Assembly (NCBI GenBank): GCA_034421995.1
Contig: DAOUJY010000047.1
Span: 39,125 to 103,124 of the forward strand
Direction of reading: 5' to 3'
DNA: 64,000 nucleotides
Origin: Dehalococcoidia bacterium
GTDB taxonomy: Bacteria; Chloroflexota; Dehalococcoidia; Lucifugimonadales; UBA3495
The notes beneath the pieces were generated by a model. That model had not been told where the DNA came from. It made no database searches and worked only from the letters and a program-made list of their open reading frames with translations. A program made the translations under genes and the position numbers. Below are positions 6,069-20,094 of this stretch, piece by piece (within the stretch, counting starts at the first letter, position 1; each line of letters opens with the position of its first letter).

Positions 6069-6470
6069 ATGTTACTGCGCTGGCCGGAGGATTTTCCCGA
6101 GGATTGCCCGCCGGAAGAGGCCGACCTGGCCAACGGAGTGTTTTACTACATCGTCAAAGCCAACCCACCGAGATCTGGCGATTTTATCCCGCTGTATCAT
6201 CGGAACCGGGGACTGGCCATGAGAAGGGTCAGGAACGGTATCGTAACGGAATGTCAAACGATGGGATTGTCAATCTTTGCCGACCAATCTGATGCTTTGG
6301 CACGGGCGCGGCAGTACCCCGAAATTGGGGATCGGATCGCTCAACTGGCGCTTGGCCCAGATGCGGGTAAAATACTCTCTACGCCGAGGGACGGCGATTC
6401 ACACCATACTTGGTGGAAAGCTGAAGGTTATGACCCGGCCGCGGTAGCCACTGTTGTACTCGACCTGTAG
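6069..6470 (+). CDS. Hypothetical protein (no family recognised)
   Basis: 133-aa ORF with an ATG 3 nt after the lepA stop. Region is visibly more AT-rich than its flanks. Confidence 0.5.
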   Translation: MLLRWPEDFPEDCPPEEADLANGVFYYIVKANPPRSGDFIPLYHRNRGLAMRRVRNGIVTECQTMGLSIFADQSDALARARQYPEIGDRIAQLALGPDAGKILSTPRDGDSHHTWWKAEGYDPAAVATVVLDL

Positions 6471-6490: not shown

Positions 6491-6889
6491 ATGCTGTCCG
6501 CAATCAAAGGAACACCTTTGCCGAACTTGCCATGGGGCGAGATTTCGTATGATGAAGTGCTCGACCATTATGAGCAAGCCTGTATCACACTGCAACGCGG
6601 CCAAACCGGAGAACTGTATCTGACTTGGTGGAGCGACGCGGATGACGACGTTGAGCGGTGGGTTTGCCTGCCGCTCAGCAAAACGCGCCTCCGCGACATC
6701 CTTTCCGGAAAAACGGCGCCCCGATATGCTATGGACCACCCCGAGAACGGCTACGTGCTCGCGGTTGATATTGACTTGGCAACCGACGTGGTAGTTCGCA
6801 CCGTCAAAACTACCACTGCCGCCTTACCCCAGGACGCGCTGCCCCGACCCGAAGCCGAGCTGAAGATGCCGATGCCCGCAACGCTGTAA
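6491..6889 (+). CDS. Hypothetical protein (no family recognised)
   Basis: 132-aa ORF, 20 nt downstream of the previous ORF on the same strand. Confidence 0.5.
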   Translation: MLSAIKGTPLPNLPWGEISYDEVLDHYEQACITLQRGQTGELYLTWWSDADDDVERWVCLPLSKTRLRDILSGKTAPRYAMDHPENGYVLAVDIDLATDVVVRTVKTTTAALPQDALPRPEAELKMPMPATL

Positions 6890-6900
6890 AGGTTGGCGCT

Positions 6901-7425
6901 ATGTCAACGTTCAAGATTGATATAGCCGTCGGCCACCCGGATGGCGGCGACCTGTCCCCTGTAGGGCCAGTGGTTGACGAGACGGCGGCCCACTCCGTGT
7001 TGCCGGAGTCGCTGCTGACCAAGTTGGGTATTGCACCCCGTCGCCAGGTGGAACTCACTCGCTTTGACGGCAGCACGGCAAAGTACGGCTATGGCCTGGC
7101 CCGCTTCAGCATCGACGGCGAGGAATGGCCCTGCCCGGTGGTATTCGGGCCGGAGGACGATTGCCGGCTGGGCGCGTCGGCCCTGGAGATTTTCAACTTG
7201 GAGATTGACCGTGCCGGCGAAAAACTGCGACCGGCGAAGCGTCGTTTTCTGGGCCGGAAGGCACAAGGCCCGGACCGGGACGCGCCGCAAGGCGCTGCTG
7301 CAATCCTGCAGATGTTTAAGGAAATTCACGAGAGTATGCCGGAGGGAGCTCTGGATGAACTCCCGACCGATCTTTCGGTGAATTTTAAGCACTATCTCTA
7401 CGGCCGGCCGAAGGAAGGAGAATAG
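6901..7425 (+). CDS. Retropepsin-like domain protein (DTG replaced by DET) with a C-terminal antitoxin-like tail
   Basis: The first ~115 aa align by eye with the proteins at 10866 and 15938 (M.TF...VG...VVD[ET]AAHSVLP.SLL). The catalytic triplet reads D-E-T. An extra ~55-aa tail ends HYLYGRPKEGE. Confidence 0.6.
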   Translation: MSTFKIDIAVGHPDGGDLSPVGPVVDETAAHSVLPESLLTKLGIAPRRQVELTRFDGSTAKYGYGLARFSIDGEEWPCPVVFGPEDDCRLGASALEIFNLEIDRAGEKLRPAKRRFLGRKAQGPDRDAPQGAAAILQMFKEIHESMPEGALDELPTDLSVNFKHYLYGRPKEGE

Positions 7426-7840: not shown

Positions 7841-7975
7841 CGCACCTCTACCATCCGCGAAATCCACTTTTTACAAATAGTTAACCGCCCCGCAACAACG
7901 TTGTGGCATTCTATTCCCGACTATACCGCGCACTTGACGGCCAGCGAATCGTTTTCGCCGAAAGTTGGGAATCCA

Positions 7976-9355
7976 ATGCTCACCGATGTCATCACCGCCA
8001 GGCACTACCTGAACGAATGCTTTGACCCCGACGGATTCACCAGGCCCGCCTACCAGAGCCTGATGGACAACTTGGACCGCTTGGGCGTGCCCGAATTGCA
8101 GGGCCGCTGGCGCGAGGCCAAGCATCGCGCCGGACTGGACGCCTTCACCTTCATGCTGGACCCGCGGGAGTTCCGCACTGTGCCCACCGACTGGGTGCCG
8201 CGCATCATTCCCGCCGACGAATGGGATACCATCTCTCGCGGCGTGGAACAGCGTCTCAAGGCCATCAACCGTTTCCTGCTGGACCTCTACTGCGGCGAGC
8301 AGCAGGTGGTCCCGCCCGACGTGATGTATTCCTGCCAGTATTACAATCCGGAGTTGCAGGACTACCGCCCAGCTCAGAACGTGTTCGTCCACATCTACGG
8401 CATCGACCTGGTACACATGGGCGACGGCCGCTACGTCATTCTGGAAGATAACCTGCGCATACCATCGGGCATCAGTTACCAGTTGAAGACCGCCGAGCTC
8501 GGGCTGAACGTGATGCCGGAACTGGCCCAGGGCTACGACATCGTCCCCTACGACATTCGCGCCGGCTACCACGATATGTTTGCGTCGCTATGCGATACCG
8601 ATGATCCGGTATGCGTCCTGCTCACCGACAGCAAGTTCGGCTCGGCATTCTTTGAGCATCGCTACCTTTCGGAGTTGCTGGGCATTCCGCTGGTGGAAGG
8701 CTCCGACCTCTACATTGGCGCCAACGGTCGCGTGTGGGGTCGCGCCATCGACGGCGACTTCGAGGTTGATCTCATTTACCGCCGGGTGGAAGACCTGGAG
8801 CTTTTCGTGCCCGGCCTGACCGAAGCCTACCTCAACCACAAGGTCGTGCTGGTCAACGCCATGGGAACCGGCGCCGGCGATGACAAGCTGGTGTTCCTCT
8901 GGGCGCCCGATATGATAAAAACGTACCTGGGGGAAGAGGCCATTCTGGAACAGGCGACCAGCTATGATCTGCGTTCGCCGGCCAACAGGCAGTACGTATT
9001 GCAGAACCTCGATAGCCTGGTGTTGAAAACGCGCCAGGGCTACGGTGGGTTGGGCGTGTTCATCATGCCCGACTTGGACAAGGGCTATCGCAGCCGCCTG
9101 TCCCAACAGCTGATTGAACAGCCCCAGGTGTTCATCGCCCAGGAAACCCTGGACTTCTCCCAACATCTTGTCTTTGACGAGTCCGGTGGCGAATTTGAGG
9201 AGCGCTACGTTGACCTGCGCGTGTTCGCCGTGCAGAACGGTCGGGGAGAGGTCACCGTTTTCCCCGGCGGACTGACCCGCGTGTCCGAGGCCAACAGCCG
9301 GGTGACCAACAACTCGTCAGGAGGGTCATGCAAACCGACCTGGGTAGTCCGCTGA
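7976..9355 (+). CDS. Circularly permuted ATP-grasp type 2 protein
   Basis: Clear paralog of the ORF at 18634-20094 (shared blocks FxLDPxPR..., EDNLR(I/V)PSG(I/V)SY, NA(M/P)GTG(A/V)(G/A)DDK). Start taken at ATG 7976; the track ORF begins at TTG 7901. Confidence 0.88.
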   Translation: MLTDVITARHYLNECFDPDGFTRPAYQSLMDNLDRLGVPELQGRWREAKHRAGLDAFTFMLDPREFRTVPTDWVPRIIPADEWDTISRGVEQRLKAINRFLLDLYCGEQQVVPPDVMYSCQYYNPELQDYRPAQNVFVHIYGIDLVHMGDGRYVILEDNLRIPSGISYQLKTAELGLNVMPELAQGYDIVPYDIRAGYHDMFASLCDTDDPVCVLLTDSKFGSAFFEHRYLSELLGIPLVEGSDLYIGANGRVWGRAIDGDFEVDLIYRRVEDLELFVPGLTEAYLNHKVVLVNAMGTGAGDDKLVFLWAPDMIKTYLGEEAILEQATSYDLRSPANRQYVLQNLDSLVLKTRQGYGGLGVFIMPDLDKGYRSRLSQQLIEQPQVFIAQETLDFSQHLVFDESGGEFEERYVDLRVFAVQNGRGEVTVFPGGLTRVSEANSRVTNNSSGGSCKPTWVVR

Positions 9356-10227
9356 TACGCGAGACGGTCCCGGTGCATTACGCCTACATTGCCAGATATA
9401 CCTACTCCGATGTAGTGGTGCAGAACGATAACTTCCTCCGGCTGTCGGCATACTCCGATCTCTACCAGAAACCGGGCGCCGGCGAGGTGGCCACAACCCC
9501 GCCGGGCCGCCAGATCGTTTATACCGACCGCCTGGGCAACACTGTCCATCGGGTTCGCATATCCGCGCCGCACCAGGAACTGATCATTGCCGCCGCCGGG
9601 CACGTTTGCCTGAGCGACCTGTCGCCGGATGTAGGCGACGTCCCACTGGCCGGCCTCGAATACGGGCTGGAAGCGCAGGAGTTCCTCACCGCGTCCCACC
9701 TGGCCGATCCGGCCGCCGTCGTGGAAACCGCTCTGGTCGCCGCCGGCGGGGCATCCACATTGCTGGATACGGTGAGCAACGTGGTGCGGTGGATCTACGA
9801 AAACGTGCGTTACCAGCGCGGCCACACGTCGGTGAACACCACCGCGGCGGACGTGCTGGAGTCCATGAGCGGCGTTTGCCAGGACATGACCCACCTGGGC
9901 CTCGCCATGCTGCGCTCCCTGGGCATCCCGGCCCGCTACGTCAGCGGCCTGCTCACCCGGCAGCCGGGCGAGACCCACGCCTGGCTGGAGTTCATGCATC
10001 CCCAGCAGGGCTGGCTGCCCGCCGACCCCACTCGTGGCCTCGTCAGCAACACCGGAACCGATTACCTGAAGTTCGGCGTGGGCCGCGACTACTCCGAAGT
10101 GCCGCCCGTGTCCGGCTCCTTTGTGTCAAAAGGCTCCGGCCAACTGGATATGGCCGCTGCCGAAGTCTTTTTCGACCGCGACACGATTTCAATGGAAGAT
10201 GCCTTCGGGCTGCTGGGACGCTTGTAG
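9328..10227 (+). CDS. Transglutaminase-family protein (N-terminal Bact_transglu_N-like plus Cys-His-Asp core)
   Basis: Core motifs GVCQDMTHL, HAWLEF and ADPT. Confidence 0.88.
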   Translation: MQTDLGSPLIRETVPVHYAYIARYTYSDVVVQNDNFLRLSAYSDLYQKPGAGEVATTPPGRQIVYTDRLGNTVHRVRISAPHQELIIAAAGHVCLSDLSPDVGDVPLAGLEYGLEAQEFLTASHLADPAAVVETALVAAGGASTLLDTVSNVVRWIYENVRYQRGHTSVNTTAADVLESMSGVCQDMTHLGLAMLRSLGIPARYVSGLLTRQPGETHAWLEFMHPQQGWLPADPTRGLVSNTGTDYLKFGVGRDYSEVPPVSGSFVSKGSGQLDMAAAEVFFDRDTISMEDAFGLLGRL

Positions 10228-10251
10228 GGGCGAATAATTATTCGCCCCTAC
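10224..10251. repeat. REP-like palindrome family P2 (gtaggggcgaataattattcgcccctac)
   Basis: Perfect palindrome. It also supplies the TAG stop of the transglutaminase gene. Confidence 0.8.
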
Positions 10252-10297
10252 GCCTACACGCTTGAACCCCGCTGACGCAGAGGAGCATGGTCAGACG

Positions 10298-10834
10298 ATG
10301 GTAGAACCCAGGTCAATCACTTACCGCAGCGACCGTTGGCTTACCGACTCCCGGGTGTACAACCTCATCTGGATGGGACGGTGGCTGGAACGGGCGGACA
10401 ACATCGCCCGCGTGGTGAACACCTTCGCTCGCATGGCGGTGGAAAACGGCAGCGATATGCTCACCCTGCAGCAGTCCCTGGAAACAGCCGCCGCCATTCG
10501 CGGCATCAGCATCGACGACCCCGGCCAGTCCCTCGCCATGCTCATCAAACAGCACGAAGCCTCTTCCATCTACCACAGCCTCGCCACCGCCCGCAGCAAC
10601 GCCACCCACGTCGGCACCGTGGAACTCATCCGCGCCATGTCCGAAGCCGTGCTGACACTGGAGGACGATGCGGCGATGCCGGACACGCCGCTGAACGCCC
10701 TGCTGCTCACCAACGAGGTCCTGGAACGCCTCAACGCCGTGTACAAGATCATCGACGACAACTGGTTCCACCAGGAAGCGCTATCGGAAGAAGAGGTGTA
10801 CCGCCGCTTCGTCCAGCAGCAGCAGCAGCAATAG
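10298..10834 (+). CDS. Alpha-E domain protein, short form
   Basis: YNLIWMGRWLERADNIARVVN matches the N-terminal signature of the 17642 paralog (GLYWMGRYLERTDHLCRLL). Only ~178 aa; poly-Gln C-terminus. Confidence 0.72.
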   Translation: MVEPRSITYRSDRWLTDSRVYNLIWMGRWLERADNIARVVNTFARMAVENGSDMLTLQQSLETAAAIRGISIDDPGQSLAMLIKQHEASSIYHSLATARSNATHVGTVELIRAMSEAVLTLEDDAAMPDTPLNALLLTNEVLERLNAVYKIIDDNWFHQEALSEEEVYRRFVQQQQQQ

Positions 10835-10865: not shown

Positions 10866-11225
10866 TCAGAGGCGCACCCTTGTGGTCGGTTCCAATACCT
10901 CACGAACCGGGTCAACTTTGAACATCAGCATCTGTAGCGTGGTCGCCCCAACGATGTTGACGTCATTACCTTCCGGCCCAAATATCGCCGGGCAAATTTC
11001 TTCGCGGTCGTCAATCCCAATCAGTGCCCGACCGCGCCAGTAAGATACCTCACTGCCGTCGGCCAGTGTCGCATCAACTTGGGAACTTCGGCTTATGCGC
11101 AGCCCGTCCAGCAACGACGCGGGAAACATGGCGAAGGAGGCGCCGGTATCAACCAACGCCTCAACCTCTATCATGTCGCCGCCGTCAGGATTGCCGACCC
11201 GAACCATTGTTGAGAACGTGCCCAT
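10866..11225 (-). CDS. Retropepsin-like (clan AA) aspartic protease, single domain
   Basis: ALVDTGASFAMFP catalytic motif. ATG 11225 lies 7 nt after GGAGGA. Paralog of the proteins at 6901 and 15938. Confidence 0.75.
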   Translation of the reverse strand: MGTFSTMVRVGNPDGGDMIEVEALVDTGASFAMFPASLLDGLRISRSSQVDATLADGSEVSYWRGRALIGIDDREEICPAIFGPEGNDVNIVGATTLQMLMFKVDPVREVLEPTTRVRL

Positions 11226-11259
11226 TGATGTTTCCTCCACAGGTTAGGCGACAACGATT

Positions 11260-12090
11260 TTATGCGATGATTGACACCGTGTCCAAAACCTTCAGCCCCA
11301 ATTCCCGGTCCCCTTCCAGCGCCGTCCTCGACTGCACAATGCCCTTATCGATGCTTTTGGTGAACAGCTTCCAGGCATCGATCGCGTCTATGGTGACCTG
11401 AGCGGCGGGCGTGTTGGCTTCGTGTTCATACAGTGCCCAGCCCGAAGCGCTGCGTACTACCAGCCAAGTCCCGCCCGCAGCGCCGGAAATCGCGACACGG
11501 ATCATCGTTCCCGTTGGGACTTCCACGCCGGAGTACGCACGCGGCAGCCCGTGCGCGAAAGTCGCCAGAACCGGCGCGAACCAATGCGGACCGGTCAGCA
11601 AGGGACGTCCCACCGCCTCTCGGATCTGCTGTTGATGATGCCAATACTCTGTGTATTCGCGGGCGAGGTGCAGCCAAACCGGGACCGGATCCGGGCCGGC
11701 CCAACTCACCACCGGGCCAATGTCGTGCGGATCCAGGGACTGCAAATACTGGTTCACGAGATAGCCCATGGACTGCAATAAGTCGATCATGAGGCGTGGG
11801 CTCATCCTCCCCATGGCCCTGACCCATTGCTCGTTCAGGTTGTTGAGTTCCCTCACGAGATCGTCCCACTCATCCGTGACGATCCATGATGCCTGGTAAC
11901 CGTCGCGGCCAATGGACAGCTGGCCGACGTTATCACCCAGGATGTGCGCCGCCACGTCGTGCACCGACCAGCCGGGACACGCCGTAGGCGCATCCCATTC
12001 CTCCGGTTGCAGGGAGTCCAATACCTCTACGAGATGTTGCAGCAGCCCGGGTAGCAAGTGTGCGGTCAATACAGGTTCCGGTGGGTGCAT
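11260..12090 (-). CDS. DinB/MDMPI_N-like family protein (maleylpyruvate isomerase N-terminal domain type)
   Basis: TACPGWSVHDVAAHILG motif near the N-terminus. Start taken at ATG 12090 after a GAGGGTG SD. Confidence 0.7.
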   Translation of the reverse strand: MHPPEPVLTAHLLPGLLQHLVEVLDSLQPEEWDAPTACPGWSVHDVAAHILGDNVGQLSIGRDGYQASWIVTDEWDDLVRELNNLNEQWVRAMGRMSPRLMIDLLQSMGYLVNQYLQSLDPHDIGPVVSWAGPDPVPVWLHLAREYTEYWHHQQQIREAVGRPLLTGPHWFAPVLATFAHGLPRAYSGVEVPTGTMIRVAISGAAGGTWLVVRSASGWALYEHEANTPAAQVTIDAIDAWKLFTKSIDKGIVQSRTALEGDRELGLKVLDTVSIIA

Positions 12091-12215
12091 GGTCGTCACC
12101 CTCGCACTTAGCCAGGCAAATATCCCCCGCGGGCACGCGGCGGGGATATGCGCAGGGGAAGGTTTCACGACCTGCCCCTGCCGGCGTCAGCGCCGATTGG
12201 CGCAACGGATCTCGA

Positions 12216-13445: not shown

Positions 13446-14426
13446 CTACTCCATCAGCTCTGCTAGATGAGGCTCGAACACCCGCTTGAACGCAACCAAT
13501 CGTGTTTCCACCCATTGCTGCAATTCTCGTAACCGCTCCGGGTTGTCCTCGGCCAAGCTTCCCTCGCGCACTGTCAGAATGCGAGATGCTGGCCGGTTGT
13601 TTTGGCGCAACCACTCCAGCGGCTCTGAAAGTTCGCTTTCAATCAGGTCTTTTTGCTCAGCCAACTTGTCGAACAAGGCTTCGTTCTGCATTTTGTCGTC
13701 AGAGTTGATATAAAGCTGAACCCAGATTTTCCCCGGGAATAGGTTTAGGGATTCATCACTGGCGCCATAATATATGCGGTCTCGCCAAGGAGAGTCCGGG
13801 CGGAACCTTCGCCATCTCCAACGAGGATGGTTCCCGCCAGGAGTGAGTCTGTGCTCATCTAACAATTCCCGGTCCAGTCCCTCGAAAAACCGGCGGCGGC
13901 GCTCTGTCGCACCGGCATTGTCTCTGGCTCGCCTGTCCCGCAGCGCACTAGCCATATTTTTCTGCCAATCATTAGGCATTGCCACCACTTTGAAATGCGG
14001 CGCCGGCCTAGAGTTGTCAATGCGCCACGCTTCAACAACCACGCCAAAAAACTGGGTATCCTCCCCAGTCCGCTGGTTGAGCCAGTCCAGCGCCTGCCGA
14101 TGTTCTGGCTGAAATTCGCTGGTGAGCCAGACGATAATGCCCGCTTCGAAACCCGCAGCGTAAGTAAGCAATTGTCCCAGATGTCTGTGGTCAGTAGACG
14201 CCAATTGGTTTTCTATCACCACAGGCGTATCGGTCCCTTGAACGTGGGCAAGTACATCCAATTCAAAGGAACCCACCCGGGCTTCCCGCTCTCGGAATTC
14301 CAATTCCAGCCCCAGTTCCTCGCCCAGCTTGTCCAGATTGTCCGCCAGCCACCTCGAAAAGTTGAACTCTTCATGGGGCCAAACCGTGCGCAGACCAACC
14401 CGCTCAATCACTCCCAAATCAACCAT
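13446..14426 (-). CDS. DUF4268-type protein with an N-terminal PD-(D/E)XK-like module
   Basis: Motifs FELDVLA...VVIENQL..TDHRHLGQLLTYAA...DWLN. ATG 14426 is preceded by AAGGAG. Paralog of 22785-23767. Confidence 0.7.
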   Translation of the reverse strand: MVDLGVIERVGLRTVWPHEEFNFSRWLADNLDKLGEELGLELEFREREARVGSFELDVLAHVQGTDTPVVIENQLASTDHRHLGQLLTYAAGFEAGIIVWLTSEFQPEHRQALDWLNQRTGEDTQFFGVVVEAWRIDNSRPAPHFKVVAMPNDWQKNMASALRDRRARDNAGATERRRRFFEGLDRELLDEHRLTPGGNHPRWRWRRFRPDSPWRDRIYYGASDESLNLFPGKIWVQLYINSDDKMQNEALFDKLAEQKDLIESELSEPLEWLRQNNRPASRILTVREGSLAEDNPERLRELQQWVETRLVAFKRVFEPHLAELME

Positions 14427-14506
14427 CGCAAAACTCCTTGTCGCGCCGTCGCCTACTGTCACTCCGCCGGCGGCATTCGTTCCTCAATAATAACGCCACC
14501 GCCGTC

Positions 14507-14857
14507 CTACCAGTCGATGGTGAGGCGGCAGTTCGCCAGCAAGGCCGTGCCTATCATGGGATAGCTTCCCAAGGTCTGTACCCGCACGTCCAAAGGCTGC
14601 CCGTGCCAAAGTATGCGCCCAGCGTGAACGTTGGCGCGGATGCTCCGCCCGTCTGCAAGGGTTACTCGTTCCGCTCTTGCGCTGCTCAATCCCAGCTCAT
14701 GCGCTGCTGATTCCGGCAGCGATAGCGCCCCGGTGAACCCGGTATCGATTAATACCTCGACCGACCGGAAAATCCGGTCATCGCCGGCAATGTCAATAGT
14801 GATCCGCGCTTCCAGTTGGGACGCATCTCGCCGAATGCTCACCTGCCCACTAATCAT
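14507..14857 (-). CDS. Clan AA aspartic protease (AF_0612/DTGF-like), module A
   Basis: MISG... LIDTGFTGALSLP ... TIDW. Its start overlaps the stop of the upstream small ORF (ATGATTAG). Confidence 0.75.
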   Translation of the reverse strand: MISGQVSIRRDASQLEARITIDIAGDDRIFRSVEVLIDTGFTGALSLPESAAHELGLSSARAERVTLADGRSIRANVHAGRILWHGQPLDVRVQTLGSYPMIGTALLANCRLTIDW

Positions 14858-15158
14858 GAATTTGCCTTTGTCGATCAGCCAGAATCTCCATGGTTCCCCG
14901 CCAACCCAATCTCACCGGCGAGTACGGCTTGTCGCTGCCCACCAGTTCGGCCCAGGTGAATGCGTTCGGATGTCGTTCCCGCAGACGCTTGGTTAGCTCC
15001 ACGTCGCTGTGCTCACCTCGGTACTCGCCAACCTCATAGTCGCCACTGTGAATGTCGATGACCACCAGTTTGCCCCAATGCTTGGCTTCCATTTCCTCAC
15101 GGATGCCCGCGTAGATTTTCTGGCCCATGGCGGCCGCTTCATCCGGCGTGAGTTCCAT
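14850..15158 (-). CDS. Small partner protein of protease A (DUF5678-like by recollection)
   Basis: About two-thirds identical by eye to 15618-15941 over ~73 aa. ATG 15158 lies 6 nt after GGAGGG. The longer track ORF (to 15344) is rejected. Confidence 0.6.
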   Translation of the reverse strand: MELTPDEAAAMGQKIYAGIREEMEAKHWGKLVVIDIHSGDYEVGEYRGEHSDVELTKRLRERHPNAFTWAELVGSDKPYSPVRLGWRGTMEILADRQRQIHD

Positions 15159-15222
15159 AATCATCCCTCCCGTCAAAGGCCACCGCCAAGTCCAGTCCGC
15201 CTCCGGCGCATGGCCCCGGACG

Positions 15223-15621
15223 TTACTCCTCCGGCAGCATTCGTTCTTCAATGATAACGTCGCCGCCGTCCCACCAGTCGATGATGAGGCGGCTGTCGGC
15301 CAGCAGGTCGGTGCCGATGAGCGTGTCATTGCCGGACTCGGCAAATACCCGCCTCATCCGTCCGTGCCACAATATCCACACGGCATAAACGTTAACTTGC
15401 ACTGTTGGGCCATGAGCCTGGCGCACATACCGCCTTGACGTGAAACGCAAGCCAAGCTCCTGCACAACGGGTTCCGGCAGGGTTAGCCAATCCGTAGCCC
15501 CGGTATCTACCACAGCCGCCAGTGTCCGGAAAGCCAGATCATCGCCAGCTACTGCGATGTCAACCCAAGCCTCCAAGCCGGCGCCGTCTGTCGCGCTTGG
15601 CCGGACTATTCCACTAATCAT
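15223..15621 (-). CDS. Clan AA aspartic protease (AF_0612-like), module B
   Basis: MISG... VVDTGATDWLTLP ... IIDW. ATGA overlap with the upstream small ORF. Confidence 0.75.
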   Translation of the reverse strand: MISGIVRPSATDGAGLEAWVDIAVAGDDLAFRTLAAVVDTGATDWLTLPEPVVQELGLRFTSRRYVRQAHGPTVQVNVYAVWILWHGRMRRVFAESGNDTLIGTDLLADSRLIIDWWDGGDVIIEERMLPEE

Positions 15622-15941
15622 GGGTCAACCTTCTGTTCAGGCCGTACCGGAAACAACCCGCGCCTTCCCGGTTTCCTGTAATACGGTGCCGGGTAGCCCA
15701 CCAGCACTGCCCAAGTTTGGGCGTCGGGCCACCGCTCGAGCAAACGACTCGTCATTTCCTCATCGCTGCGGCGGCTTACGAATGCACCCACTTCATAGTC
15801 ACCACTGTGAACGTCGATGACCACCAGCTCGCCCCAGTGGTTAGCTTCCATTTCCTCGCGGATGCTCTCGTAGATTTTCTGGCCGGCGGCGGCAGCTTCC
15901 TCGCCGGTGAATTCGGTTGTTTCCTTGTCGCCGTATTTCAT
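15618..15941 (-). CDS. Small partner protein of protease B
   Basis: Core AAAAGQKIYESIREEMEANHWGELVVIDVHSGDYEVG. ATGA overlaps at both ends. Confidence 0.65.
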   Translation of the reverse strand: MKYGDKETTEFTGEEAAAAGQKIYESIREEMEANHWGELVVIDVHSGDYEVGAFVSRRSDEEMTSRLLERWPDAQTWAVLVGYPAPYYRKPGRRGLFPVRPEQKVDP

Positions 15942-16306
15942 AGTGTTCCCCCTTGCATCAGCAAGTCTTCCTGGACCACCAGCCGCTGGTCCACCGGGTC
16001 AACCGCCAAGCCCATATCCTCCAGCGTGGTCGCTCCCATCAGGTACACCCCTTCCGACCCGAAAGACACGCGGGCCACTGCGTTGCGGCCTGCTGCGGAG
16101 AACCTTGCCCAGGCAGTTTGCAACTCCATTCTGCTGCCGTCGGCAATCCTGGATATTCTGGTTTCAACCGGCTCAATCCCCAGCTCGCGCAATATGCTGG
16201 CTGGAATCATCGAGTGCGTGGCTCCGGTATCGACCAATGCCGAAACCGTAGCGCCGGCGCCGGTGAAAATGTTGCCCACCCACAAATCAACGCTGAAAGT
16301 ACCCAT
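15938..16306 (-). CDS. Retropepsin-like (clan AA) aspartic protease, single domain
   Basis: MGTFSVDLWVG... ALVDTGATHSMIPASIL. Same subtype as the proteins at 10866 and 6901. Confidence 0.75.
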   Translation of the reverse strand: MGTFSVDLWVGNIFTGAGATVSALVDTGATHSMIPASILRELGIEPVETRISRIADGSRMELQTAWARFSAAGRNAVARVSFGSEGVYLMGATTLEDMGLAVDPVDQRLVVQEDLLMQGGTL

Positions 16307-17641: not shown

Positions 17642-18628
17642 TTACGTTGCCGGTACACCCACCGCCGGATAGTCGAAATAGGTGGCCGTTATCAGGTTGT
17701 GCAACTCCAGGCAGAATGCTGCCACCAGTTCCAGCACACTCTCGCGGTTGTCGCTGTCCGGCCATTCGTAATGTAGCATCGCGCTGGCCCGGCCGGCCAG
17801 CCGTCGCATCGCCGCGCTGGCGTCCGCGTCCTGCCCGGCGCCGAGTACTGCGAGCTCTGCGGTCACGGCATCCAGGGCGTGGCACACTGAGTGCGGTAGG
17901 AGGGGGTCGGTAACGAGCAAATTCAGAACCTGCTCCGGGATCACTTCAACTCTGTACGCGCGTTGGTAAGCCTCGAAGGCGTGGTACACCCGCAGCAGGG
18001 AGGCCCAATCCGACTCGAAGCGTTGTTCGTCCGGACCGTCCATCTCCAGTTGGGTCAGCAACAGGCCGCCCATCTGTTGCGCTCGCTCGATGTTCCTGCC
18101 CAGCCGCATGAAATGCCAGCCTTCGTCCCGGTACATCGTCGTCGCCGCCACCCCCATGAAGGTGTCTATGTCTTCCGAGACCGAGGCATAGAAACTCTCC
18201 GGCGAGTTGGTCCAAATATCCAGAAGCCTGATCTGTTGGACACGCAGGTAGGCCAGGTTCAACGCCCGCCACATCTCGCCGCTGATGCAGTGGCGCATCT
18301 GGCGGGCGTTTTCTCGCCCGGCGGCAAAACAGCTCCATAGCGACACCGGATTCACCCGCTCGAAGGTCAGGTCGTCGGCCAGGGTGTATGAATCCGCCAG
18401 GGTGAATTCTTCCGCGCCGGCGAAGTTTCCGCTGAGCTCGAAGGTCAGGCCGGCCGCCGGCGGCTGCCGGTCCAGGCTGCGGTAGATGCGGTTCCACCCG
18501 GCGTAGATCTCCTCAACGGGTCGGTCAACCAGCGCCTCCGTTTGCAGTTGCAGCAGACGGCACAGGTGGTCCGTCCGCTCCAGGTAGCGGCCCATCCAGT
18601 ACAATCCCTGCGCGCTGCGGGCCAGCAT
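17642..18628 (-). CDS. Alpha-E domain protein (full length)
   Basis: MLARSAQGLYWMGRYLERTDH N-terminus. ATG 18628 lies 9 nt after GGAGGA and 5 nt after the upstream stop. Confidence 0.85.
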   Translation of the reverse strand: MLARSAQGLYWMGRYLERTDHLCRLLQLQTEALVDRPVEEIYAGWNRIYRSLDRQPPAAGLTFELSGNFAGAEEFTLADSYTLADDLTFERVNPVSLWSCFAAGRENARQMRHCISGEMWRALNLAYLRVQQIRLLDIWTNSPESFYASVSEDIDTFMGVAATTMYRDEGWHFMRLGRNIERAQQMGGLLLTQLEMDGPDEQRFESDWASLLRVYHAFEAYQRAYRVEVIPEQVLNLLVTDPLLPHSVCHALDAVTAELAVLGAGQDADASAAMRRLAGRASAMLHYEWPDSDNRESVLELVAAFCLELHNLITATYFDYPAVGVPAT

Positions 18629-18633
18629 CGGCG

Positions 18634-20094
18634 TCAGTCCTCCAGCACCCACACGTCCTTGCCGCCGCCGCCCTGGCTGGAGTTGACCACCAGGCTGCCC
18701 CGGCGCAACGCCACGCGGCAGAAGGCTCCGGGAACGATGCGCGTGGTCTGGCCGGTCAGTATGAACGGCCTCAGGTCAACGTGGCGCGGCTCGAACTTGC
18801 CGTCAATCAGGCAGGGAGCGCGGGATAGCGCCAGCGTGGGCTGGGCGATGAAGTCTTTGGGGTCCGCGCGCACGGCTTTGGCGTATTCCTCCCGCTCCGC
18901 CGGCGTGGCGTGGGGGCCAACCAGCATCCCGTAACCGCCTGATTCGCCAACCCGCTTCACCACCAGCTTGTCCAGGTTGTCCAGAGTGTATTCCAGTTCT
19001 TCCGGGCGCCGGCACAGGTAGGTCTCGACGTTCTGCAACAGTGGTTCTTCGCTGAGGTAGTAGCGGATTAGGTCGGGCACATAGGCGTACACGCCCTTGT
19101 CGTCGGCCACCCCAGTTCCCGGCGCGTTGGCCAGCGCGACGTTGCCCCGTAGATAGGCGTCCAGCAAGCCGGGGACGCCCAGCACCGAGTCGGAGCGGAA
19201 TGCCAGCGGGTCGATGAAGTCATCGTCAACCCGCCGGTAGATCACGTCGATCCGTTCCAGGCCGGTGGTGGTGTGCATGTACACGTAGCCGTCCTGCACC
19301 AGCAGGTCGCGGCCCTCCACCAGCTCCGCGCCGATTTCCCCCGCCAGGAACATATGCTCGTAAAACGCCGAGTTATAAACGCCCGGAGTCAGCAGCGCAA
19401 TCCGCGGGTTGGGTCGGTCGCCCGGCGCCAGTTCCCGCAGAGTTTCGCCCAGCAACTGACCGTACTGTTCCACTTCCAGGACCTGGGAACTGCGATAGAG
19501 ACGTCGGAAACTGGCCTTTACCGCCTTGCGGTTGGCCACCATGTACGACACGCCCGACGGCACGCGCAGGTTGTCCTCCAGGACCCGGTAGCCGTCGTTG
19601 GTGCGGACCAGGTCGGTGCCGCAGATTGCCACCCACGTTCCCTCCGGCGGGGTGAAGCCTTTCATCTGGGCGCGGTATTGCGGGCACTCGTACACCATAT
19701 CCGGCGGTATCACGCCGTCAGCAATAGCGCGTCCGCCTCCGGCGGATCCATACACATCCTGGATAAACCGGTTCAACGCCCGGATCCGTTGCGTCAGGCC
19801 GGCTTCCAGCTGCCGCCATTCCCGTTCCGCCAGCAGACGTGGCACGCAGTCAATGGGGATGATCCGTTCGGTGGCTTCCTCGTCGCCGTACACCGTGAAC
19901 GTGATGCCCTCGTTGGAGAACGACCGGGTCACCCGCTCCTGGATGGCGGCCAGTTCTTCGGCGGACAGCGCATCGAGGGTTCGGCGCAGGGCGGCCCAGC
20001 CGTCCCGCGTTCGTCCGTCGGCGAGAAACATCTCGTCAAAGACGTTGGCATCCAGTTCGTAGTCCCGAAAACGGTCTTCAACATTCGCTTGCAT
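18634..20094 (-). CDS. Circularly permuted ATP-grasp type 2 protein
   Basis: Paralog of 7976-9355. ATG 20094 sits 1 nt after the lhgO stop. Confidence 0.88.
   Translation of the reverse strand: MQANVEDRFRDYELDANVFDEMFLADGRTRDGWAALRRTLDALSAEELAAIQERVTRSFSNEGITFTVYGDEEATERIIPIDCVPRLLAEREWRQLEAGLTQRIRALNRFIQDVYGSAGGGRAIADGVIPPDMVYECPQYRAQMKGFTPPEGTWVAICGTDLVRTNDGYRVLEDNLRVPSGVSYMVANRKAVKASFRRLYRSSQVLEVEQYGQLLGETLRELAPGDRPNPRIALLTPGVYNSAFYEHMFLAGEIGAELVEGRDLLVQDGYVYMHTTTGLERIDVIYRRVDDDFIDPLAFRSDSVLGVPGLLDAYLRGNVALANAPGTGVADDKGVYAYVPDLIRYYLSEEPLLQNVETYLCRRPEELEYTLDNLDKLVVKRVGESGGYGMLVGPHATPAEREEYAKAVRADPKDFIAQPTLALSRAPCLIDGKFEPRHVDLRPFILTGQTTRIVPGAFCRVALRRGSLVVNSSQGGGGKDVWVLED

Follow-up and report, generated by a model that had tools for sequence, protein, structure and literature searches.

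Why would a bacterium carry, one behind the other, small genes of no recognised family that are each coupled to a free-standing protease of the retropepsin type? This question is raised by a locus in a Dehalococcoidia bacterium (assembly GCA_034421995.1, contig DAOUJY010000047.1, positions 39,125 to 103,124), and the whole stretch of 64,000 nucleotides (nt) that was analysed is referred to here as the window. A sequence-only reading of the window had described, on the minus strand, an array in which small open reading frames (ORFs) alternate with retropepsin-like aspartic proteases, and had likened this layout to toxin-antitoxin (TA) and related two-gene modules. The follow-up analysis firmly establishes that the small protein (hereafter S) and one protease subfamily (hereafter P1) constitute a real, ancient and co-translated two-gene module, in which a retropepsin that appears to be active is combined with a dedicated partner. 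What the module does can be answered more tentatively: S may bind and restrain its cognate protease, in which case the pair would act as a TA-like or defence-island element.

Two tandem units in the window

Re-reading the sequence found the five ORFs, their coordinates, the 64-nt gap, the overlapping junctions and the DTG motifs all as first described (Table 1). The stop codon of protease C (protC) and the start of the first small gene, S_B, share an ATGA at 15938-15941, the stop of S_B and the start of protease B (protB) share another at 15618-15621, and the stop of the second small gene, S_A, lies within an 8-nt overlap, ATGATTAG, with the start of protease A (protA) at 14850-14857. Consensus scans of the 64-nt spacer and of the array interior found neither promoter nor terminator. 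The two small proteins, which had been matched by eye at about two-thirds of ~73 positions, are 64% identical over 86 aligned residues, and protA and protB are 48% identical to each other.

The description of the array as tandem modules holds for two of the proteases and fails for the third. Specifically, protC is ~28% identical to protA and protB and 41-58% identical to other copies of a separate retropepsin subfamily, P2. Since protC belongs to this distinct subfamily, the array is not a set of three equivalent modules, a possibility that can be ruled out, and protC is a mere neighbour rather than a partner of S. The window contains two tandem S-P1 units, of which unit B is intact and unit A has a truncated protease.

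A pair conserved across phyla

That S and P1 belong together is indicated by their recurrence in other genomes, which was followed from either partner. In an S-first sample, a profile built on 30 S homologues picked up 158 relatives in one-genome-per-species contigs, and the best 79 loci were mapped; all of these lie in metagenome-assembled genomes of Dehalococcoidia or other Chloroflexota, often with several loci (3-5 or more) per genome. Mapping with hidden Markov models (HMMs) placed a same-strand P1 directly after S in 73 of the 79 loci, and throughout this sample P1 always comes after an S, which P2 genes do not. In a P1-first sample, a metagenome scan yielded 58 loci with 27-48% identity to protB, 49 of them with enough upstream sequence; 48 of these have S immediately before P1, and the 49th carries an S-like remnant. 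The same adjacency is thereby repeated in >120 independent loci, which is far beyond chance, and both chance and an annotation artefact can be ruled out as its origin. One supposed loss of P1 (locus L151) proved to be a gene-caller miss. The sequence-only reading had made its case hang on conservation of the pairing in other genomes, and conserved it is.

The overall spread of the module takes in Chloroflexota, cyanobacteria and soil bacteria. Two distant S representatives (P0216 and P0243) are both followed by an overlapping P1. The pair is also present in nine cyanobacterial plasmid records, including plasmids of Nostoc, Trichormus, Tolypothrix and Microchaete, where it is labelled 'hypothetical protein' (the RefSeq label of S) and 'clan AA aspartic protease'; plasmid pCC7120alpha of Nostoc PCC 7120 has two pairs (WP_044523651/WP_010999818 and WP_010999914/WP_010999913). 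Natural fusions are rare and occur in both orders, as S-S-P1 (P0181) and as P1-S (P0265), and a tandem S-S gene has P1 next to it downstream.

The small ORFs can be regarded as real, homologous genes, and their proposed translational coupling to the protease is borne out by the junctions. Of 77 S/P1 junctions, 58 overlap: 41 share 8 nt, with the sequence RTGATTAG/A, 12 share 4 nt, 3 a single nt and 2 share 11 nt. Nearly all of the non-overlapping ones measure ≤10 nt. Because overlaps of 4 nt and of 8 nt set P1 in different reading frames with respect to S, and both occur among close relatives, termination-reinitiation fits better than a programmed frameshift, which would yield an S-P1 polyprotein and is unlikely.

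No relatives were found in 2.9 million viral contigs (IMG/VR) or 50,697 phage records (INPHARED), and a phage origin of the pair was rejected on this ground. The absence of any characterised system with this pairing, already noted in the sequence-only reading, extends to Pfam, NCBIfam, PADLOC and PHROGs and to the literature searched, namely that on DUF5678, TIGR03698, COG5550 and clan AA proteases or retropepsins in connection with toxin-antitoxin systems, where the pair is not described.

An apparently active retropepsin

The proteases had been called retropepsin-like from their motifs, and both profile scores and catalytic residues uphold this assignment. The curated cut-off of TIGR03698 (NCBIfam, clan AA 'DTGF') is 57.35 bits; protA passes it with 71.2 bits, protB lies 0.55 under it with 56.8 and protC fails with 48.4. 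Judged by profile score, family membership is therefore firm for P1 by way of protA, borderline for protB and below the cut-off for protC, the P2 protein. Pfam Asp_protease_2 is above threshold for protC alone (35 bits), and Pfam gag-asp_proteas gives weak matches. DTG is present in all three proteases of the array. P1 is recognised by its M-I-x-G-x-V start, by DTG[FAY] and LIGTxLL, and by the IDWWDGGDVIIEE strand at its C-terminus; P2 is recognised by MGTF..., VDTGA[TS], GATTLE and VDPV. A homologue search with protB returned at least 46 close relatives; the protein itself has MISG at its N-terminus, carries the catalytic DTG as well as LIGTDLL, and has the IDWWDGGDVIIEE strand at its C-terminus.

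The catalytic residues are near-invariant across the subfamily. Asp and Thr are each found in 67 of 68 full-length P1 sequences, the last residue of the motif is Gly 60 times and Ala 7 times, and the Gly of LIGTxLL, which represents the second retropepsin motif (hydrophobic-hydrophobic-Gly), is kept in 66 of the 68. In the alignment, this second motif and the C-terminal strand are conserved with cyanobacteria included. The single-domain size of ~110-130 amino acids (aa) implies a homodimer, and P1 is, as far as its residues tell, an apparently active retropepsin of ~130 aa that presumably works as one. Against PDB sequences, the P1 profile gave weak matches only, to the Rickettsia retropepsin ApRick (E = 0.2) and to human DDI1 (E = 0.85); these are the best matches that would be expected for such a protein, weak as they are.

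Unit A departs from this pattern. A TAG (14507-14509) stands where the conserved IDWW has its second Trp, so that protA ends at 116 aa, and the strand it has lost occurs in 26 of 26 other aligned P1 sequences. In retropepsins, the C-terminal strand is part of the dimer interface. On sequence grounds, protA is probably a defective or dead protease.

A partner of unrecognised fold

S is a small, acidic and cytoplasmic protein of ~85-105 aa with a median isoelectric point (pI) of 5.2, and P1 is acidic as well (median pI 4.8). The S alignment has an invariant core consisting of E32, W36-G37, VVID40-43, GDYE47-50, W77 and G82. A homologue search returned 156 homologues, and an exhaustive profile search 1947 S clusters at 50% identity (E <= 1e-3), with many tandem S-S proteins among them. 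One further match to the S profile, the 941-aa protein P0241 with its surface-protein-like repeats, reached E = 6e-14 through eight short 'GKLVINDLKPGDYQLVE' repeats and was judged a false positive arising from a VVIDxxxGDYE-like hairpin motif.

Structure prediction with AlphaFold2 (AF2) gave a first model with a predicted local distance difference test score (pLDDT) of 71 and a second, from 106 sequences, with a pLDDT of 88 and a predicted template-modelling score (pTM) of 0.77. In the predicted fold, a long N-terminal helix precedes a beta-hairpin, which is followed by another helix and further strands (a beta-beta-alpha-beta core). Searches of Pfam, NCBIfam, PADLOC and PHROGs yielded no family match for S_A or S_B; in PADLOC-DB v2, S_A matched nothing and S_B only REase_II at a non-significant E of 0.032, and P1 and P2 gave weak matches only (PDC-M08B, E ~0.003; PEPT_D, E 0.045). 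Foldseek found no relative of S in the PDB (best E 0.44 for the model with pLDDT 71 and 0.84 for that with pLDDT 88), no RHH, HTH, AbrB or Phd match was found among PDB folds, and the S profile found nothing among PDB sequences. A ubiquitin-like (beta-grasp) fold, which the strand order had brought to mind, was unsupported.

DUF5678, named in the sequence-only reading as a candidate family for the small ORFs, did not survive the search. The Pfam model (PF18929) gave no match for S_A or S_B at E <= 1, matched 1 of 91 S relatives (E = 4.5e-4, at a threshold of E = 0.01) and matched none of 10 further divergent S at E = 1. Membership was rejected, given that the window proteins and 100 of 101 relatives are missed. 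What is left is a remote structural likeness: among BFVD predicted viral structures, the S model comes closest to two Pandoravirus DUF5678 proteins (probability 0.98 and 0.95; template-modelling (TM) score 0.43-0.53, E = 0.03-0.18). No solved DUF5678 structure came up in the PDB search with the S model. In view of the HMM misses, a relation between S and DUF5678 is remote at best.

A hypervariable cassette

In ~27-30 genomes, the pair forms part of a lineage-specific cassette, P2-S-P1-(S-P1)-DUF4268/PDC-S11-P2, that occupies a fixed chromosomal site directly downstream of the same MR_MLE gene; P2 is found upstream of S in ~25 related loci and DUF4268 after P1 in ~25 loci. Median aa identity to the window is 95% for MR_MLE and 97% for a luciferase-like gene, both in the flanks, and within the cassette 76% for P2, 62-67% for S, 50% for P1 and 52% for DUF4268. 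By this measure, evolution is far faster in the cassette than in its flanks. Its GC content of 54-60% over 13.2-16.3 kb, versus 62-70% in the flanks, is consistent with foreign or fast-evolving DNA.

The speed of this change can be seen in a sister strain (L080), in which the flanking DNA is 94-98% identical to the window and the cassette differs: protB is frameshifted, protA is full length (133 aa) and there is one extra P2 gene. From about residue 74 of S_A onwards, the two strains carry different alleles, with identities of 78% for the S tail, 53% for P1 and 51% for DUF4268. The swap starts inside S_A and takes in the S tail together with P1 and DUF4268. An MDMPI_N/DinB-family gene of the window is missing from the otherwise collinear locus of the sister strain and is an insertion/deletion polymorphism beside the cassette.

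The two partners also differ in how they decay. In the S-first loci, 66 S genes are accompanied by an intact P1, ~10 by a disrupted P1 and ~7 by none. Intact P1 is missing for ~17 of 85 S genes, and S is missing for at most 1 of 49 P1 genes in the P1-first sample; going by these counts, P1 is preferentially lost and S retained. Examples include the nonsense codon of protA in the window, the frameshift of protB in the sister strain and a P1 that is interrupted by a TnpB-like insertion next to a still intact S.

Table 1 Features of the array and its surroundings in the window
Feature	Position	Strand	Description
protC	15938-16306	-	122 aa, ALVDTGATH; P2-subfamily retropepsin-like aspartic protease
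S_B	15618-15941	-	107 aa; small protein, class-1 tail ending ...GRRGLFPVRPEQKVDP
protB	15223-15621	-	132 aa, VVDTGATD; full-length P1-subfamily retropepsin
Spacer	15159-15222	-	64 nt, between the two S-P1 units
S_A	14850-15158	-	102 aa counted from ATG; small protein, class-2 tail ending ...RLGWRGTMEILADRQRQIHD
protA	14507-14857	-	116 aa, LIDTGFTG; P1-subfamily retropepsin, truncated
protA remnant	14459-14506	-	leftover in-frame C-terminal tail (DGGGVIIEERMPPAE) past the premature TAG
DUF4268/PDC-S11 gene	13446-14426	-	candidate defence gene; Pfam DUF4268 58.6 bits, PADLOC PDC-S11 317 bits
MDMPI_N/DinB-family gene	11260-12168	-	302 aa
Solo P2 retropepsin	10866-11240	-	VDTGAS; 3' of the MDMPI/DinB gene
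ATP-grasp/Alpha-E/transglutaminase set, first copy	7901-10834	+	
ATP-grasp/Alpha-E/transglutaminase set, second copy	17642-18652 and beyond	-	
Alpha-E gene	10262-10834		short, 190 aa
P2-like retropepsin homologue	6901-7425	+	DET for DTG; C-terminal extension of ~55 aa
DUF6575 gene	6491-6889	+	Pfam 33.7 bits
ORF upstream of DUF6575 gene	6069-6470	+	no family match

Further features surround the array. The window carries five retropepsin-like genes within 10 kb. Solo P2 genes sit at the 3' ends of unrelated genes, and their presence varies between the two ~95%-identical strains; in the sister strain they are found at 8532-8927 and 10173-10532, after DUF4268 and the luciferase gene. The P2-like homologue that begins 12 nt past the DUF6575 gene is probably an inactive paralogue, as it has DET instead of DTG. 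The DUF4268 protein has a weak YhcG-like PD-(D/E)xK N-terminus, and the variable region as a whole is bracketed by two opposite-orientation copies of a set of circularly permuted ATP-grasp, Alpha-E and transglutaminase genes.

Mobile and defence neighbourhoods

As in type II TA systems, the distribution of S-P1 is multi-copy and patchy, and extends over plasmids, mobile elements and defence islands. In plasmid pNSMS101 of Nostoc sp. MS1 (locus L086, 250823-251460), the pair lies on the opposite strand between the BREX-1 genes pglZ and pglX. An IS630 transposase gene adjoins this pair. Other copies adjoin RelE/ParE, PIN, ParD and DUF1156 plus helicase genes, one copy comes after Dcm, HATPase_c_3 and Vsr, and another is located among transposases inside an insertion sequence (IS) cluster.

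Possible roles of the module

A first indication of how the partners might interact comes from their joint divergence. Pairwise distances of S and P1 correlate with r = 0.77, and in cassette loci, where the mean distance is 0.28 for the S core, 0.57 for the S tail and 0.48 for P1, the partial correlation with P1 is 0.37 for the tail versus 0.16 for the core. Specifically, tail classes consistently match the residues after DTG in P1. Class 1 has the tail motif G[LM]xP[VI]xP, in which x is mostly I, F or Y (GLFPVRP in S_B of the window), and class 2 has T[ML][EA]x[LI]A (TMEILA in S_A). We take these motifs to resemble the X-Pro and hydrophobic-hydrophobic sites at which retropepsins cleave, which is a lead only.

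In the model favoured here, S would bind its cognate P1 by means of the conserved core, which would serve as the docking surface, and the variable C-terminal tail would co-vary with the residues after DTG. Bound S would keep the protease inactive, either as a pseudo-substrate or as an inhibitor, and so take the role of an antidote. If S were depleted or displaced, for instance upon loss of the module or under infection stress, P1 could then cleave cellular or invader proteins, resulting in growth arrest. Indirect support for binding and neutralisation comes from the co-inheritance of S and P1, their natural fusions and co-variation, the joint allele swap between the window and its sister strain, and the uneven decay of the two genes. 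That S restrains P1 in this manner, and that the module thereby acts as a TA-like or defence-island element, is a reading to which we give slightly less than an even chance. The wider proposition, according to which S-P1 represents a widespread and previously unrecognised class of protease-based toxin-antidote or abortive-infection systems with insulated paralogous pairs in each genome, is more doubtful. In it, a cytoplasmic retropepsin dimer would be held inactive by a cognate partner of novel fold, and the S tail and the P1 specificity pocket would co-diversify.

The TA analogy, originally drawn from gene layout, stands in part. It is favoured by circumstantial evidence, namely multiple copies, plasmids, BREX and other defence loci, the nearness of TA genes and IS elements, the hypervariable low-GC island and the decay of the protease; the canonical definition of a type II system does not cover S-P1. 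As S is without a DNA-binding antitoxin domain, the module is described here as TA-like and not filed as a type II TA system.

Several observations weigh against restraint of a toxic protease by S. The small protein has no DNA-binding domain, both partners are acidic by their pI values of 5.2 and 4.8, and S is more conserved than P1, which is opposite to the common TA pattern. A promoter of the array's own was not detected, the consensus scan finding neither promoter nor operator upstream, and some S-P1 pairs sit between housekeeping genes. In the AF2 monomer, the class-1 tail (LFPV) is packed onto the S core with a pLDDT of ~90, which speaks against a free, floppy pseudo-substrate tail. The co-variation of tail and P1 may stem from physical linkage alone, and the decay asymmetry (Fisher test on 15/86 versus 1/49, p = 0.01) is built on two differently ascertained samples. 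The absence of the module from phage and viral sets and from the PADLOC models neither helps nor harms the case.

The same tail could also mark S as a dedicated substrate or precursor, with P1 cutting the variable part from a leader-like conserved domain and thereby releasing a peptide or activating S. Models for such an arrangement would be the precursors of ribosomally synthesised and post-translationally modified peptides (RiPPs) or bacteriocins with large conserved leaders, as well as SpoIIGA and pro-sigma-E. A conserved core next to a hypervariable tail that co-varies with P1 in cassette loci is what this explanation would lead one to expect, a short hydrophobic motif persists in each tail class, and the natural S/P1 fusions recall self-processing retroviral polyproteins. 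However, the surveyed loci have no consistently adjacent modification enzyme, exporter or immunity gene, many S have very short tails, and cyanobacterial S are altogether different. Moreover, the final tail residues are constrained by the gene overlap and not by peptide function, and the persistence of ~17 of 85 S genes without intact P1 would be odd if processing were needed. As such, we regard a substrate role as unlikely.

Obligate co-occurrence and coupled translation would equally suit S as an assembly or regulatory subunit (a chaperone, say, or an activator) of a protease with a housekeeping or stress function. P1 would then need S for dimerisation, stability or substrate delivery, and the module would have no addiction or defence role and would lie near mobile and defence genes by coincidence. 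The high conservation of the S core across phyla and the housekeeping neighbourhoods of some pairs point in this direction, and the existence of tandem S-S proteins and of fusions hints at a complex of fixed stoichiometry. What makes a subunit role rather improbable is the genetics of the module: very divergent paralogues are present in multiple copies within one genome, alleles are swapped between near-identical strains in a hypervariable low-GC island, P1 is often pseudogenised, and copies of the pair occur on plasmids, inside BREX and next to TA genes, none of which is the behaviour of a housekeeping enzyme.

The pattern of decay bears most directly on a reversal of roles, in which S would be the harmful effector and P1 the antidote that degrades it, following the logic of type VI or other enzymatic antitoxins. 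Orphan S, or S beside a broken P1, is common (~17 of 85, with unit A of the window included), and P1 without S is essentially never seen, which is contrary to S being toxic; the S-first gene order, furthermore, corresponds to an antidote-first layout. Even though S is better conserved than P1, proteolysis is a natural way to dispose of a protein and the S tail could be a degron for its cognate P1, reversed roles are thus hardly to be expected. Least probable by far is that the array is what remains of a retroelement or virus, with a gag-like protein and a protease that serve no cellular function, as might be suggested by the retropepsin-like protease, the weak gag-asp_proteas matches and the Pandoravirus DUF5678 proteins as best structural neighbours of S, since no reverse transcriptase, integrase or capsid gene lies near any examined locus, the viral and phage collections hold no relatives, and catalytic and core residues are strongly conserved across phyla as under purifying selection.

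Bacteria and archaea commonly encode free-standing single-domain retropepsins, and the new results show that one large branch of them, P1, nearly always comes with a dedicated partner, which makes its role approachable as a simple two-gene question. If the wider proposition of a protease-based toxin-antidote class holds true, it would provide a first function for the free-standing prokaryotic retropepsins of TIGR03698, and aspartic proteases would join the repertoire of TA and defence effectors. Should S prove to be an inhibitor, it would also offer a new scaffold for inhibiting retropepsin-type proteases. With the pair present on pCC7120alpha of Nostoc sp. PCC 7120, a tractable model, these ideas are testable outside the uncultured Dehalococcoidia.

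Comparison with known systems

The closest known relatives of the protease are the TIGR03698 and COG5550-type free-standing retropepsins (AF_0612 family), with which P1 shares DTG, the hydrophobic-hydrophobic-Gly motif and the single-domain size. TIGR03698 is an annotation label only; the obligate upstream S partner is not recorded in the libraries searched, and P2 is a distinct branch. For S, the nearest counterpart is DUF5678 (PF18929), which it resembles in its small size and through its structural neighbours in BFVD.

In their organisation, S and P1 are most reminiscent of type II TA systems such as RelBE, ParDE and VapBC. Like these, they are two small, co-directional and overlapping genes with the putative antidote first, they occur in multiple copies, patchily, on plasmids and interleaved with RelE/ParE and PIN modules, and the effector gene is the first to decay. 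In contrast to them, S has no HTH, RHH, AbrB or Phd DNA-binding domain and is better conserved than P1, both proteins are acidic, whereas the usual pairs combine an acidic antitoxin with a basic toxin and autoregulate their transcription, and an aspartic protease toxin is not among the TA models of Pfam, NCBIfam and PADLOC.

Protease-based modules provide a second point of comparison. ImmA/IrrE-ImmR (COG2856-Xre) and CapP-CapH also join a dedicated protease to the product of an adjacent small gene on mobile elements or in defence islands, but theirs are zinc metalloproteases with HTH repressors, whereas P1 is a retropepsin and S has no DNA-binding fold. RiPP precursors with their leader peptidases combine a conserved leader, a hypervariable C-terminal core and adjacent modification or export genes; S has a conserved core and a variable tail, and modification or export genes are not consistently adjacent to S-P1. 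In eukaryotic Ddi1, a ubiquitin-like (UBL) domain accompanies the retropepsin, and in yeast, IA3 is the small inhibitor of proteinase A, so that a retropepsin-type or pepsin-type protease has a small protein domain of its own in either case. By analogy, these could serve as precedents for a complex of S with P1 or for an inhibitory S; Foldseek searches of the PDB and sequence comparison revealed no similarity of S to ubiquitin-like domains or IA3. Taken together, what is new here is the pairing itself, an effector class that would be unprecedented and a partner of unrecognised fold, and the kin of this module are to be sought among two-gene TA-like and defence modules.

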